64,000 nucleotides of DNA from Escherichia coli (GTDB taxonomy: Bacteria > Pseudomonadota > Gammaproteobacteria > Enterobacterales > Enterobacteriaceae), in NCBI RefSeq assembly GCF_001677475.2, contig NZ_CP015229.1; one strand, written 5' to 3'. The notes beneath the pieces are model-generated. The model was not told the origin of the DNA. It ran no database searches and worked only from the letters and a program-made list of their open reading frames with translations. The position numbers and the translations under genes were made by a program. Positions 13,324 to 31,710 of the stretch are shown one piece after another (within the stretch, counting starts at the first letter, position 1; each line of letters begins with the position of its first letter).

Positions 13324-13575
13324 ATAAATCTCCATTTATCATTTGTGTCGTAAATATGTAATCCATGCAAAATACGTCATTTAAAGCTGGCGATATCATA
13401 ATTGGGAAATTGCGACTTTAATAAGTAGAAGTGTGAGCTGAACGCGCCATTTTATTAGGCATTTGTGCTGAAGAGGGAAAAGTACGCAAATTTATTATCT
13501 CTGTAAATAATATGAGGTGTTTTATATATTTATTATATATATTGTACTTCGGCAAATACTGAGCACAATTAATCA

Positions 13576-13893
13576 ATGCAACCGGTGTTTTTTATTAAAA
13601 AACGTACCGGAGCAATGGGCGGTCATGTCGCTGGCACCGCAGGATTCTGTGTTGCTGTGCCAGCCTTTTATTCATGGTCAATGAGTGAGGGGATTGATAA
13701 AGAAACCAGGTCGTCAGAGCGCACTGATTATCCGCATTACGCCAGTGAAGTTGCACTGGCTTTTGGTTCACGAGTGGTTGGCCTCGAACTGGCAAAAATG
13801 ATTGTGGATGCGTGGCTGGGCGCGCAGTACGAAGGCGGTCGTCATCAACAACGCGTGGAGGCGATTACGGCAATAGAGCAGCGGAGAAATTGA
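13576..13893 (+). pseudogene. rpiB: Decayed remnant of ribose-5-phosphate isomerase B / allose-6-phosphate isomerase (rpiB)
   Basis: C-terminal ...SSERTDYPHYASEVALA-FGSRVVGLELAKMIVDAWLGAQYEGGRHQQRVEAITAIEQRRN matches RpiB, but the central catalytic segment (ICGTGVG region, about 50 residues) is missing and the N-terminus is unrelated. Confidence 0.6.
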
Positions 13894-22431: not shown

Positions 22432-23211
22432 TCAGATAAAGTGCTTACGCAACCGTTGAGAGAGGAAATCCAGCAGGCTGACCGTGACGATAATCAGCAC
22501 CATCAGGGCGCAGGTTTGCTGGAACTGGAAACCGCGAATCGCTTCCCACAGCGTGACGCCAATTCCGCCTGCGCCGACCATGCCTACGACGGTCGCCGAA
22601 CGGACGTTGGATTCGAAGCGATAGAGAGAATAGGAAATCAGCAGCGGCATCACTTGCGGCAGCACGCCGTAGAGGATCTCTTCGAGCTTGTTGGCACCAG
22701 TGGCGCGAATACCTTCCACCGGGCCGGGTTCAATTGCTTCTACCGCTTCGGAAAGCAGCTTGGAGAGCACGCCGGTGGTGTGGATAAACAGCGCCAGCAC
22801 GCCAGCGAACGGGCCAAGGCCGACGGCGACCACGAACAGCATGGCGAAGACCATTTCGTTAATGGCGCGGCAGGCGTCCATCAGGCGGCGTACGGGCTGG
22901 TAAACCCACCACGGCACCAGGTTTTCGGCGCTCATCAGGCCAAAGGGGATGGAGAGAACCACCGCCAGCGCGGTGCCCCAGACGGCGATTTGCAGCGTGA
23001 CGGCCATTTCGGTGAGGTAATCCTGCCACTGGCTGAAATCGGGCGGGAAGAAGTCGGCGGCGAACGTCGCCATGTTGCCGCCGTCTTTAATCAGCGTGAG
23101 CGGGGCCATTTCCGCGCCCTGCCACGAGACGACCAGCACGGCGAGAACAATGGCCCAGCTCAGAAGCGAGAACCAGCTGCGCTTGGGTGGGGCGATGGTG
23201 ATGGTTTGCAT
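22432..23211 (-). CDS. phnE: Phosphonate ABC transporter permease PhnE; uninterrupted 259-aa frame
   Basis: Single continuous [22 protein letters not shown]... with no frameshift. Confidence 0.9.
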
Positions 23212-26237: not shown

Positions 26238-26636
26238 GTGGATTTCCTCAAAAGTCAGCAGGGCAAAAGCGCCAAAAAACGGCAGATTGCCGAAAAAGGC
26301 CGCAATTATACACAAAATCCCTGAGTTTGTCGGGGGTACTGCTGATTTTAGACGACGATCGTTTTCATTTGAAAGGAAACGCAAAAAGAAAATAATCTTT
26401 TTGCCTCCATTTATTATTTAAGATAAGGTTAATGCTCTACTTGTTCTTTTTTTAATTCAAATGATATTTTTATCTTTCTGACGTTTTAAACGTATCGGAA
26501 GATGTTATTTATTTTAATAAAAAAACACTCTAAATATAAAATTATTTCTTGCAGTAATTATAAAAGCCGAAAACAGAACTCAAAAACAATCTGGCTAAAT
26601 AAAAGTAACAAAATTTGCTTTAAGGAAGAATTTTCT

Positions 26637-28865
26637 ATGTACACACAGACCCTGTATGAGTTAAGTCAGGAGGCTGAACGGCTGTTACAGCTTTCTCGCC
26701 AACAGTTGCAGTTACTGGAAAAAATGCCTCTCTCTGTACCCGGAGACGATGCGCCACAACTGGCTTTACCCTGGAGTCAGCCTAATATCGCCGAACGTCA
26801 CGCGATGCTGAATAATGAGTTGCGTAAAATTTCCCGACTGGAAATGGTGCTGGCGATTGTCGGTACCATGAAAGCAGGGAAATCAACCACCATTAATGCC
26901 ATTGTTGGTACGGAGGTTCTGCCTAATCGTAATCGCCCAATGACTGCGCTGCCGACGCTTATTCGCCATACGCCCGGGCAAAAGGAACCGGTACTGCATT
27001 TTTCACATGTCGCGCCAATCGATTGTTTAATTCAAAAATTACAACAGCGCCTGCGTGATTGCGATATTAAGCATCTGACCGATGTGCTGGAAATAGATAA
27101 AGATATGCGTGCGCTTATGCAGCGGATCGAAAATGGCGTCGCTTTCGAAAAATATTATCTGGGTGCCCAGCCTATTTTTCATTGTCTGAAAAGTTTGAAT
27201 GATTTGGTGCGACTGGCGAAGGCGCTGGACGTCGATTTTCCTTTTTCTGCTTACGCCGCCATTGAGCATATTCCCGTGATTGAAGTGGAGTTTGTCCATC
27301 TGGCGGGGCTGGAGAGTTATCCCGGTCAGTTGACGTTACTGGATACCCCCGGGCCAAATGAAGCCGGGCAACCGCATCTGCAAAAAATGCTTAACCAGCA
27401 GCTGGCTCGCGCCTCGGCGGTATTGGCGGTGCTGGATTATACGCAACTGAAATCGATCTCCGATGAAGAGGTCCGTGAGGCGATTTTGGCGGTGGGGCAA
27501 TCGGTGCCGCTGTATGTGCTGGTCAATAAGTTCGATCAACAGGATCGTAACAGTGACGACGCCGACCAGGTGCGGGCACTGATTTCCGGGACGCTGATGA
27601 AAGGCTGTATTACGCCACAGCAGATATTTCCGGTGTCGTCGATGTGGGGCTACCTGGCGAATCGGGCGCGCCATGAGTTAGCCAACAACGGTAAGTTACC
27701 ACCGCCAGAGCAACAACGCTGGGTGGAAGATTTTGCCCATGCCGCGCTCGGCAGGCGCTGGCGTCATGCCGATCTGGCTGACCTCGAACATATTCGTCAT
27801 GCTGCCGATCAGTTGTGGGAAGATTCGCTGTTCGCCCAGCCAATTCAGGCGTTGCTTCATGCCGCTTACGCTAACGCCTCGTTGTATGCTCTGCGATCTG
27901 CCGCGCATAAACTGTTGAATTACGCGCAGCAGGCGCGGGAATACCTGGATTTCCGTGCGCACGGGTTAAACGTCGCTTGTGAACAATTGCGGCAAAATAT
28001 TCATCAGATCGAAGAAAGTTTGCAGCTATTGCAACTCAATCAGGCGCAGGTGAGCGGCGAGATTAAACATGAAATCGAGCTGGCCCTGACCTCCGCCAAC
28101 CACTTTCTGCGTCAACAGCAAGATGCGCTGAATGCGCAGTTTGCCGCCTTGTTTCAGGATGATTCGGAGCCGTTAAGCGAGATTCGTACCCGCTGTGAGA
28201 CACTGTTACAGACGGCGCAGAACACCATTAGTCGCGACTTTACGCTGCGTTTTGCCGAGCTGGAATCCACCCTTTGCCGGGTGTTAACCGATGTTATTCG
28301 CCCCATTGAGCAACAAATCAAAATGGAATTGAGCGAGTCAGGGTTTCGTCCTGGGTTTCATTTTCCTGTTTTTCACGGCGCAGTTCCCCACTTCAACACT
28401 CGCCAGCTGTTCAGTGAAGTCATTTCGCGCCAGGAAGCAACGGACGAGCAGAGCACGCGTTTAGGCGTTGTGCGTGAGACTTTTTCGCGCTGGTTGAATC
28501 AGCCCGACTGGGGACGGGGAAATGAGAAATCCCCGACAGAGACGGTTGATTACAGTGTGTTGCAACGAGCATTAAGCGCAGAAGTCGATCTTTATTGCCA
28601 ACAAATGGCTAAAGTTCTGGCAGAGCAGGTCGATGAATCTGTTACGGCAGGCATGAATACTTTTTTCGCTGAGTTCGCTTCATGTTTGACGGAATTACAG
28701 ACGCGTTTACGCGAAAGTCTGGCTCTGCGTGAACAAAATGAATCGGTGGTCAGGCTGATGCAGCAGCAATTGCAGCAGACTGTGATGACTCACGGCTGGA
28801 TTTACACCGACGCCCAGCTGTTACGCGATGATATTCAAACACTTTTCACGGCAGAACGATATTGA
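26637..28865 (+). CDS. crfC: Dynamin-like large GTPase CrfC (YjdA)
   Basis: ATG at 26637 gives MYTQTLYELSQEAERLL...; GTPase G1 motif GTMKAGKST; 742 aa. Confidence 0.88.
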   Translation: MYTQTLYELSQEAERLLQLSRQQLQLLEKMPLSVPGDDAPQLALPWSQPNIAERHAMLNNELRKISRLEMVLAIVGTMKAGKSTTINAIVGTEVLPNRNRPMTALPTLIRHTPGQKEPVLHFSHVAPIDCLIQKLQQRLRDCDIKHLTDVLEIDKDMRALMQRIENGVAFEKYYLGAQPIFHCLKSLNDLVRLAKALDVDFPFSAYAAIEHIPVIEVEFVHLAGLESYPGQLTLLDTPGPNEAGQPHLQKMLNQQLARASAVLAVLDYTQLKSISDEEVREAILAVGQSVPLYVLVNKFDQQDRNSDDADQVRALISGTLMKGCITPQQIFPVSSMWGYLANRARHELANNGKLPPPEQQRWVEDFAHAALGRRWRHADLADLEHIRHAADQLWEDSLFAQPIQALLHAAYANASLYALRSAAHKLLNYAQQAREYLDFRAHGLNVACEQLRQNIHQIEESLQLLQLNQAQVSGEIKHEIELALTSANHFLRQQQDALNAQFAALFQDDSEPLSEIRTRCETLLQTAQNTISRDFTLRFAELESTLCRVLTDVIRPIEQQIKMELSESGFRPGFHFPVFHGAVPHFNTRQLFSEVISRQEATDEQSTRLGVVRETFSRWLNQPDWGRGNEKSPTETVDYSVLQRALSAEVDLYCQQMAKVLAEQVDESVTAGMNTFFAEFASCLTELQTRLRESLALREQNESVVRLMQQQLQQTVMTHGWIYTDAQLLRDDIQTLFTAERY

Positions 28866-29740
28866 CCAAGACGTTACTTGACGGCCCCGGTCGCGTGCTG
28901 GAGTCGGTTTATCCCCGCTTTTTAGTGGATCTGGCGCAGGGCGATGATGCCCGCCTTCCACAAGCCCATCAGCAGCAGTTTCGTGAACGACTGATGCAGG
29001 AACTTCTTGCGCGCGTGCAGCTTCAGACATGGACGAACGGCGGCATGTTAAATGCGCCGCTTAGCCTGCGTCTGACATTGGTGGAAAAACTGGCGTCGAT
29101 GCTGGATCCCGGTCATCTGGCGCTGACGCAGATCGCGCAGCATCTGGCGCTGCTGCAAAAAATGGATCACCGCCAGCACTCTGCTTTCCCAGAGCTCCCC
29201 CAGCAAATTGCCGCCTTGTATGAGTGGTTTTCAGCCCGTTGTCGCTGGAAGGAAAAGGCGTTAACGCAACGAGGCCTCCTGGTGCAGGCAGGTGATCAGA
29301 GCGAGCAAATTTTTACCCGCTGGCGTGCTGGGGCGTATAACGCCTGGTCGTTGCCTGGGCGCTGTTTTATCGTTCTGGAGGAGTTGCGCTGGGGGGCATT
29401 TGGCGATGCCTGCCGTCTGGGAAGCCCGCAAGCGGTGGCGTTGTTGCTGGGTGATTTGCGCGAGAAAGCGACACAACATCTGGCAGAGAGTATCAATGCG
29501 GCACCGACCACGCGTCACTATTACCATCAGTGGTTTGCCTCTTCGACCGTTCCGACGGGAGGGGATCATGCTGATTTTTTAAGTTGGCTGGGAAAGTGGA
29601 CCACGGCAGATAAACAGCCCGTTTGCTGGTCAGTGACCCAACGCTGGCAAACAGTCGCGCTGGGGATGCCACGACTCTGTTCAGCGCAGCGTTTGGTGGG
29701 GGCAATGGTCGAGGAAATCTTCTCTGTAAATTTGGTGTAA
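28862..29740 (+). CDS. yjcZ: CrfC-partner protein YjcZ
   Basis: 292-aa ORF whose TTG start overlaps the crfC TGA stop (TTGA). Confidence 0.8.
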   Translation: MTKTLLDGPGRVLESVYPRFLVDLAQGDDARLPQAHQQQFRERLMQELLARVQLQTWTNGGMLNAPLSLRLTLVEKLASMLDPGHLALTQIAQHLALLQKMDHRQHSAFPELPQQIAALYEWFSARCRWKEKALTQRGLLVQAGDQSEQIFTRWRAGAYNAWSLPGRCFIVLEELRWGAFGDACRLGSPQAVALLLGDLREKATQHLAESINAAPTTRHYYHQWFASSTVPTGGDHADFLSWLGKWTTADKQPVCWSVTQRWQTVALGMPRLCSAQRLVGAMVEEIFSVNLV

Positions 29741-31620: not shown

Positions 31621-31710
31621 ATGAAAAACCGTGTTTATGAAAGTTTAACTACCGTGTTCAGCGTGCTGGTGGTCAGCAGCTTTCTTTATATCTGGTTTGC
31701 CACGTTCTGA
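31621..31710 (+). CDS. pmrR: Small membrane protein PmrR (29 aa); below the ORF-track cutoff
   Basis: atg aaa aac cgt ... ttc tga translates to MKNRVYESLTTVFSVLVVSSFLYIWFATF, a single TM helix; GGAGG Shine-Dalgarno; 3' end overlaps the convergent basS by 25 bp. Confidence 0.75.
   Translation: MKNRVYESLTTVFSVLVVSSFLYIWFATF

Follow-up and report, generated by a model that had tools for sequence, protein, structure and literature searches.

Overlapping gene pairs that share nucleotides between stop and start codons, in the form of ATGA or TGATG, have been validated as coupled by termination-reinitiation in E. coli and Haloferax (Huber et al. 2019, PMC6728339; Huber et al. 2023, PMC10666635). 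In overlapping E. coli pairs this mechanism has been experimentally validated, and the contribution of the Shine-Dalgarno (SD) sequence was found to differ widely between genes (Huber et al. 2019, PMC6728339). A downstream gene may also be served by a promoter located within its upstream neighbour. This has been reported for motA, which is driven by a sigma-28 (FliA) promoter near the 3' end of flhC; among the intragenic FliA promoters, the authors singled it out as the only one with broad conservation (Fitzgerald et al., bioRxiv 10.1101/188474). As regards the initiation codon, annotated UUG-initiated genes make up about 3 % of E. coli genes (Hecht et al., bioRxiv 10.1101/063800), while switches from AUG to UUG are strongly selected against and tend to be offset by a stronger SD (Belinky et al. 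2017, PMC5622118).

The rdcA (crfC, yjdA) and rdcB (yjcZ) genes of E. coli have been described and cloned as an operon; their products interact tightly in two-hybrid assays, deletion of either gene results in the same phenotype, and together the two proteins activate the diguanylate cyclase DgcE, which heads the biofilm-matrix cascade of E. coli (Pfiffer 2019). Owing to this joint activation, the amount of RdcB made per RdcA could influence the switch from motility to biofilm.

Both genes lie on the + strand of the window analysed here, a 64,000-nucleotide stretch of E. coli DNA (contig NZ_CP015229.1). The rdcA gene (26637..28865, from the MG1655 start and stop mapped onto the window, in agreement with RefSeq) encodes a dynamin-like GTPase of 742 amino acids that matches the NCBIfam CrfC equivalog with 1594 bits, as well as Pfam Dynamin_N. 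The program-made list of open reading frames contains rdcB (28862..29740, +, 292 amino acids, TTG start) plus an ORF with its end at 28865. The RdcA partner protein encoded by rdcB belongs to the Pfam YjcZ family (PF13990; E=1.2e-144, 481 bits, residues 21-287 of 292), and its orthologues in different Enterobacteriaceae genera are 53-63 % identical. Positions 28860-28869 of the window read tattgaccaa, so that TTG (28862-28864) and TGA (28863-28865) form the TTGA (28862..28865, +) in which the initial annotation had seen the yjcZ start overlapping the crfC stop. This overlap is read directly from the sequence, and the same TTG and 4-nt overlap are annotated in RefSeq/PGAP (strain BE2-5) and in MG1655 (b4109, 4327135..4329363; b4110, 4329360..4330238). 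Base 28862 is shared with the last RdcA codon (TAT, Tyr742), whose third position it forms, as rdcA ends in cga tat TGA (Arg-Tyr-stop). The letters TTGA carry no meaning by themselves and stand above chance due to the conserved 292-codon family ORF that opens there. The junction is an already known, ordinary overlapping pair, annotated exactly so, and its sole oddities are the weak start codon and the published promoter inside rdcA.

Overlaps of this kind are commonplace in the window, where they involve 14 of the 47 co-directional neighbour pairs (about 30 %). All 12 further overlaps listed in the initial annotation are real when the MG1655 gene ends are mapped onto the window: they measure 14 nt at phnO/N, 8 nt at nrfE/F and phnJ/I, 4 nt at nrfF/G, mdtO/P, phnM/L, phnK/J, phnH/G, basR/eptA and dcuS/R, and 1 nt at phnN/M and phnI/H. 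A 1-nt overlap at mdtN/mdtO, absent from that list, was additionally observed. The start codon of rdcB is the only TTG among the 54 mapped window genes; dicD starts with GTG and all others with ATG.

Comparative evidence, as well as agreement with the existing annotation, lends good support to the proposal that the overlapping TTG opens the yjcZ frame. An in-frame TGA (28829..28831, +) bars any longer N-terminal extension, as seen in the sequence and in the translation of 28829-29740, and neither ATG, GTG nor TTG occurs in the rdcB frame between this codon and 28862, so that no canonical start is possible further 5' than the TTG. Among 80 species loci, the homologous start codon is ATG in the 77 species of other Enterobacteriaceae genera and TTG in the three Escherichia loci, the junction reading ATGA in 72 loci and TTGA in those three. 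TTG is thus confined to Escherichia among the sampled genera, ATG having been kept in all sampled sister genera, which makes the TTG at 28862 an Escherichia-specific descendant of an ancestral ATG, derived by a single A-to-T change (ATGA to TTGA). Within the species, at least 5395 of the 5408 complete E. coli genomes carrying the junction retain TTG. In the main E. coli haplotype, to which the search was confined (a minor T2I haplotype of 270 genomes lies outside it), the first base of the start is never A, G or C.

The sequence downstream of the TTG evolves as coding sequence. RdcB residues 2-20 are conserved across genera, with L5, G8, R11, L13, E14, P18 and F20 present in at least 90 %, and pairwise differences per site over codons 2-22 amount to 0.17, 0.18 and 0.51 at the three codon positions, a coding-like pattern that changes to the periodicity of the rdcA frame upstream of the start. 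Within Escherichia, the same codons show five synonymous and two non-synonymous changes, a signal that comes from just seven variable sites. The UUG is aligned with the starts of its orthologues and followed by sequence under coding constraint, as expected of a genuine UUG-initiated gene. The supplements of TRAINSPOTTER, INRI-seq, TetRP and Giess 2017 contain no entries for yjcZ, rdcB, b4110 or yjdA.

It is very improbable that Escherichia lost the ancestral start through the ATG-to-TTG change and that RdcB begins further downstream, the annotated TTG being a mere longest-ORF choice. The Pfam YjcZ match does open at residue 21, and one Enterobacter hormaechei entry (P0117) is annotated from Met21. 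Against this, codons 2-22 retain coding periodicity and mostly synonymous change within Escherichia, no candidate has a better SD than the TTG, and T is invariant at 28862 in the main haplotype, although a change to C would be silent for RdcA. Each of the three candidates was rejected on further grounds. GTG at codon 12 (28895..28897, +) has a weak SD (-2.4) and is replaced by GTA in Escherichia sp. E1V33, while the codons upstream of it evolve as coding. GTG at codon 22, the invariant Val22 (28925..28927, +), lacks an SD at a usable distance and would leave out residues 2-21, which are conserved across genera. The first in-frame ATG, at codon 45 (28994..28996, +), which had been named as the start that would overturn the TTG, would cost six invariant residues (V22, L24, Q37, R41, R43 and L44) together with 24 residues of the Pfam domain.

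The TTG is accompanied by a very weak SD. The region in question, acggcagaacga (28848..28859, +), which doubles as coding sequence for the conserved RdcA tail ...TLFTAERY, forms an anti-SD duplex of only -2.8 kcal/mol, ranking 48th among the 54 window genes, whereas the other 4-nt overlaps in the window reach -5.6 to -8.5 kcal/mol. This weakness is family-wide, the median being -2.4 kcal/mol in the 77 ATG-start orthologues, and no SD compensation for the AUG-to-UUG switch is seen at rdcB. An SD ahead of the restart codon, which is frequent at coupled pairs but not obligatory, has only a very weak counterpart here. A stronger SD in species devoid of the sigma-28 motif was considered and dropped, the pattern being inconsistent across species. 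The stop-to-start geometry is tightly kept: among the 80 species loci, a 4-nt overlap was found in 75, a 1-nt overlap in one and a 2-nt gap in four, and in none of these species are the rdcA stop and the rdcB start separated by more than 2 nt. Over 101 nt, the junction is less prone to folding than shuffled sequence (z=+1.09), and coupling by the unmasking of a start hidden in RNA structure was rejected, as no masking structure is predicted.

Translational coupling of rdcA with rdcB, which had been read from the overlap, is plausible. It is consistent with the tight geometry in 80 species, the weak SD, the unmasked start, the binding of RdcA to RdcB and the precedent of Huber et al. (2019). 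Both genes lie on the same strand without a terminator-like site at the junction, as a single transcript would require, and neither a terminator nor a sigma-70-like promoter is predicted there. As RdcA is expressed throughout growth (Pfiffer 2019) and no terminator is predicted, a bicistronic mRNA is plausible. On such an mRNA, ribosomes finishing RdcA at UGA would most likely reinitiate on the overlapping UUG to produce RdcB, since almost no SD help is available in any family member, and reinitiation would tie the output of the partner protein to the output of the GTPase to which RdcB binds. On the other hand, the tight overlap could also persist merely because both protein ends are conserved. 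A reporter-type test of the dependence of rdcB on rdcA translation, such as premature rdcA stops, was not found in the literature searched.

Coupling to full-length RdcA cannot be the whole story, given the active FliA promoter inside rdcA. The promoter, TAAAGTTC-N11-GTCGATGA (28610..28637, +), lies 225-252 nt upstream of the TTG and matches exactly the published motif (Fitzgerald 2014). Compared with the consensus-like TAAAGTTT-N11-GCCGATAA, 7 of 8 and 6 of 8 positions are matched, which together with the published binding and RNA data identifies it as a FliA promoter. A FliA ChIP-seq site and motif were reported inside yjdA/rdcA, and yjcZ RNA dropped from 52 to 1 when fliA was deleted (Fitzgerald 2014). 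A lacZ fusion showed the intragenic promoter to be active (Fitzgerald et al., bioRxiv 10.1101/188474). Transcription would start near 28644, giving a leader of about 217 nt of rdcA coding sequence. The motif is kept in most of the 80 species, and the promoter is conserved even at synonymous sites, beyond the needs of the protein: codon choice within it is highly uniform (CGT 98 %, AAA 97 %, GCT 88 %, GTC 86 % and GAT 97 %), and third-position conservation over the promoter codons is 0.844 against a mean of 0.589, the highest of 141 placements over the last 150 codons of rdcA, which is to be read as a rank and not as a probability because the sequences are phylogenetically related. The sigma-28 mRNA lacks the rdcA start, and RdcB made from it would thus be uncoupled from the synthesis of full-length RdcA. 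Any test of coupling must reckon with this conserved promoter.

It is possible, though we consider it doubtful, that the TTG is a real start at which ribosomes initiate de novo, chiefly on the sigma-28 mRNA, and that the 4-nt overlap is inherited compaction without a coupling function. The internal FliA promoter is real and active, its conservation at synonymous sites extends across genera, and it is the source of most yjcZ RNA in motile MG1655. Moreover, the start is accessible, because the junction is unstructured, and SD-independent initiation has been documented across the E. coli genome (PMC7043885). However, a UUG with an SD of -2.8 kcal/mol would be a very poor site for de novo initiation, UUG belonging to the class that reaches 10-100 % of AUG even in good contexts (Hecht et al., bioRxiv 10.1101/063800). 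In addition, the two genes have never drifted more than 2 nt apart in the 80 species, and a bicistronic mRNA is plausible.

A further possibility, which appears unlikely, is that ribosomes on the sigma-28 mRNA reach rdcB by reinitiation after translating a short ORF nested in the rdcA frame, which would in addition give rise to a small peptide from the RdcA C terminus. Such an ORF could begin at ATG 28653 (Met671, 70 codons) or ATG 28758 (35 codons), the latter opening a speculative sub-ORF (28758..28865, +) on the sigma-28 leader that ends at the overlapping TGA, as does every rdcA-frame start downstream of the promoter. ATG 28758 is the only leader start with a moderate SD (-5.8 kcal/mol), and Met671 is 97 % conserved. 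Nevertheless, the conservation of Met671 is not informative, as this residue lies inside a conserved protein motif, and ATG 28653 is situated just about 9 nt from the presumed transcription start and has no SD. Other Escherichia species do not preserve the SD of ATG 28758 (-2.8), and in most genera its codon specifies Leu. The suggestion of a compensating nested ORF, with ATG 28758 and its SD having appeared in Escherichia alongside the TTG, was retained only as a low-probability reading, since this SD is confined to E. coli proper. In its fullest form, which we regard as improbable, a nested ORF of 35-70 codons would drive reinitiation and release a free C-terminal RdcA micro-protein, while in Escherichia the UUG would be locked by dual coding and throttle the RdcB:RdcA ratio; the lock would arise because base 28862 doubles as the wobble position of the terminal Tyr codon, where A or G would create a stop and C would turn the start into CUG.

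The account that we favour, with a probability of roughly 60 %, combines both transcripts: the TTG is the real start, RdcB is made by reinitiation after RdcA on a bicistronic mRNA, and extra rdcB message is supplied by the sigma-28 mRNA. This second, FliA-dependent transcript, starting about 217 nt upstream inside rdcA, would add rdcB message during flagellar gene expression, and ribosomes must arrive at its UUG either by initiating de novo or by first translating a short ORF in the rdcA frame. We infer both the occurrence of reinitiation and the share of each mRNA, and the sigma-28 mRNA may dominate where nearly all yjcZ RNA is FliA-dependent. The modest gain here is the strong comparative support for the TTG start of rdcB and the recognition that, in this genus only, TTG has taken the place of a conserved ATG with no compensating SD.

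With respect to the known systems, rdcA/rdcB resembles the pairs of Huber et al. in that the genes are co-directional and overlap by 4 nt, their products bind each other, and the stop-start distance stays between -4 and +2 nt in 80 species. It differs from them in that the rdcB start in Escherichia is UUG and not AUG, and in that coupling is plausible only; unlike the other 4-nt overlaps in the window, moreover, rdcB has a much weaker SD. Like annotated UUG genes of E. coli, rdcB is a conserved ORF whose UUG is its 5'-most start, and curated annotation accepts this codon. Unlike in the usual UUG genes, however, the codon derives from an AUG retained by all sampled sister genera, and no SD compensation accompanies the change. 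The promoter inside rdcA is similar to that of motA in flhC: each is a sigma-28 promoter that sits close to the 3' end of one gene and drives the next, is shared by several genera and has left its mark on codon choice. Unlike flhC and motA, however, rdcA and rdcB also overlap at stop and start, so that two mRNAs, differing in the coupling they allow, would serve the rdcB start.

The sequence tattgaccaa, read directly at window positions 28860-28869, places the rdcB start TTG (28862-28864, +) over the rdcA stop TGA (28863-28865, +); the upstream gene, rdcA (crfC/yjdA), encodes a dynamin-like GTPase, and the downstream gene is rdcB (yjcZ). The mechanical ORF list contains a 292-codon rdcB ORF with this TTG start (28862..29740, +) and a same-strand upstream ORF terminating at 28865. 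The previous stop in the rdcB frame is a TGA at 28829-28831 (+), and neither the sequence nor its translation contains an ATG, GTG or TTG in that frame between this stop and 28862. The opening of the yjcZ frame at a TTG over the crfC TGA, as described in the initial annotation, is confirmed by the sequence and by the RefSeq/PGAP and MG1655 records, in which rdcB starts at the identical TTG with the same 4-nt overlap; the TTGA overlap is correct, but already known from existing annotation.

The window, a piece of E. coli chromosome, is collinear with MG1655 from nrfE to dsbD, with the als-rpiB block missing: the entire als operon, together with the bulk of the alsR-rpiB region (~6.8 kb, MG1655 4306823-4313662), is absent at window ~13547-13756, where ~200 nt lacking an MG1655 match stand instead. 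Mapping of MG1655 gene ends onto the window was used to measure junction overlaps, and each of the similar overlaps listed earlier was recovered, with 14 nt at phnO/N, 8 nt at nrfE/F and phnJ/I, 4 nt at nrfF/G, mdtO/P, phnM/L, phnK/J, phnH/G, basR/eptA and dcuS/R, and 1 nt at phnN/M and phnI/H; mdtN/O, absent from that list, also overlaps by 1 nt. Since 14 of the 47 co-directional neighbour pairs in the window overlap, the rdcA/rdcB overlap is in itself ordinary, and the only unusual feature of the junction is the TTG, the sole one among 54 mapped starts. Elsewhere in the window, the 3' ends of the convergent pmrR (+) and basS/pmrB (-) share 25 nt (31686-31710), as in the MG1655 annotation, and phnE (22432-23211, -), a pseudogene in the MG1655 annotation, is an unbroken 259-codon ORF. 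Upstream of the annotated rdcA ATG (26637), the reading frame stays open for a further 45 codons, back to another ATG at 26502 (26502-26636, +), which would yield 787 aa versus the annotated 742 aa; the NCBIfam CrfC model covers the annotated form over its full length (residues 1-742).

Comparative evidence argues well for the TTG at 28862 as the probable rdcB start (probability roughly 0.9). Scanning a single genome from each species yielded 80 loci in which an RdcA relative is directly followed by an RdcB relative. The counterpart of the 28862 codon is ATG in 77 loci (Citrobacter, Enterobacter, Kosakonia, Lelliottia, Leclercia, Phytobacter, Trabulsiella, Yokenella, Superficieibacter, Pluralibacter, Franconibacter, Siccibacter, Atlantibacter and others) and TTG in the three Escherichia loci; ATG is therefore ancestral, and TTG arose through a single A-to-T change in the Escherichia lineage. 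In the protein alignment, RdcB residues 2-20 are conserved between genera with an overall identity of just 53-63 %, and L5, G8, R11, L13, E14, P18 and F20 are conserved at ≥90 %. Mean pairwise differences over codons 2-22 (67 distinct sequences) are 0.17, 0.18 and 0.51 at positions 1, 2 and 3, and in the 63 nt upstream of the start the periodicity shifts to the rdcA frame. Within Escherichia, where the switch to TTG has already taken place, five synonymous and two non-synonymous differences fall in codons 2-22. Further downstream, the frame offers as alternative starts GTG codon 12 (28895, +), converted to GTA by one of these synonymous changes, GTG codon 22 (28925, +) and codon 45 (28994, +), its first ATG; none has a better Shine-Dalgarno (SD) match, and initiation at the ATG would remove six invariant residues. 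AUG-to-UUG switches are strongly selected against and usually offset by a stronger SD (Belinky et al. 2017, PMC5622118); the SD comparison across the 80 loci revealed no such compensation for rdcB.

A search of 5426 complete E. coli genomes found an exact copy of the 31-mer that surrounds the TTG in 5125 of them and, in a further 270, a second haplotype in which codon 2 is ATC instead of ACC; TTG is thereby kept in at least 5395 of the 5408 genomes having the junction. Replacing the first start base of the main haplotype by A, G or C gave no match in the complete genomes. This base, 28862, also serves as the wobble position of RdcA's final codon: RdcA ends in TAT TGA (Tyr) in Escherichia and in NNA followed by TGA in other genera (Pro in 38 loci, Thr in 20, and others). 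In the Escherichia context, A or G would create TAA or TAG, shortening RdcA by one residue, and C would create CTG, so that T alone lets RdcA end in Tyr while rdcB keeps a usable start. The absence of the C variant from the main haplotype fits start-codon selection, because TAT to TAC is silent for RdcA yet gives CTG. The data are compatible with Tyr having driven the start-codon change and with the reverse. The minority RdcB haplotype carries Thr2Ile (28866-28868) and, in two genomes read, Tyr17His (28910-28912), with TTG intact. Some strains carry deletions at the locus: in FDAARGOS_943 (locus L088, 806-2359) the 5' part of rdcA is fused to rdcB near codon 4, related Dynamin_N+YjcZ fusion proteins of 438-442 aa were found by protein search (P0020-P0022), and 19KM2326N (locus L002, 4000-4242) retains a 3' rdcB fragment alone, with rdcA and the greater part of the phn operon gone.

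The anti-SD duplex 5' of the TTG has an energy of -2.8 kcal/mol, placing rdcB 48th among the window's 54 genes, compared with -5.6 to -8.5 kcal/mol at the other 4-nt overlaps there. A weak SD is found family-wide (median -2.4 in the 77 ATG loci), and its bases also encode the conserved RdcA tail LLRDDIQTLF-AAE. The overlap is 4 nt in 75 of the 80 loci and 1 nt (TGATG) in one, with a 2-nt gap (TAAnnATG) in four; the gap never exceeds 2 nt. The RNA around the junction is unstructured (z=+1.09), which makes the unmasking of a hidden rdcB start unlikely. Termination-reinitiation, with a variable SD contribution, has been demonstrated for overlapping E. coli pairs (Huber 2019, PMC6728339), and RdcA and RdcB interact tightly in two-hybrid assays, their single deletions sharing one phenotype (Pfiffer 2019). 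Given the weak SD, tight spacing, unstructured RNA and RdcA-RdcB binding, reinitiation is the most economical explanation on the bicistronic mRNA, on which ribosomes terminating at the rdcA UGA would reinitiate at the overlapping rdcB UUG. The translational coupling previously suggested is thus plausible and somewhat favoured, albeit unproven; it cannot be the sole route.

A FliA (sigma-28) ChIP-seq site within yjdA, with the motif TAAAGTTCTGGCAGAGCAGGTCGATGAA, has been described as driving yjcZ, whose RNA dropped from 52 to 1 when fliA was deleted (Fitzgerald et al. 2014), and the promoter was active as a lacZ fusion in their follow-up (bioRxiv 10.1101/188474); the FliA-dependent part of yjcZ RNA is large in the published RNA-seq. 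An exact match lies at 28610-28637 (+), 225-252 nt upstream of the TTG, and the usual spacing would place the transcription start near 28644. Most of the 80 loci, spanning most Enterobacteriaceae genera that have the gene pair, retain the motif, usually in the form TAAAGCTT-N11-GTCGATGT, and it is kept at synonymous positions too (CGT 98 %, AAA 97 %, GCT 88 %, GTC 86 %, GAT 97 %). Across the promoter codons, third positions reach a conservation of 0.844 (mean 0.589), which ranks first among 141 placements within the final 150 rdcA codons, a figure to be read as a rank and not a probability because the sequences are related. Since conservation reaches synonymous positions, the region looks like a dual-use sequence, both coding and promoter. 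The family arrangement is conserved: an internal sigma-28 promoter, a ~217-nt leader of rdcA coding sequence and an overlapped, SD-poor start. Full-length RdcA cannot be translated from the sigma-28 mRNA, and rdcB must therefore be reached there either by de novo initiation or by reinitiation after a short rdcA-frame ORF, for which the 35 codons from ATG 28758 offer the only moderate SD start in the leader (-5.8 kcal/mol), although both this ATG and its SD are unconserved.

The rdcA/rdcB pair shows the geometry and operon organization of the textbook 4-nt stop/start overlap class, whose functional hallmark is dependence on upstream translation, but lacks its optional SD. Among annotated UUG starts, rdcB is typical apart from its AUG-to-UUG switch, and the rdcA-internal promoter driving rdcB is comparable to the motA promoter inside flhC.
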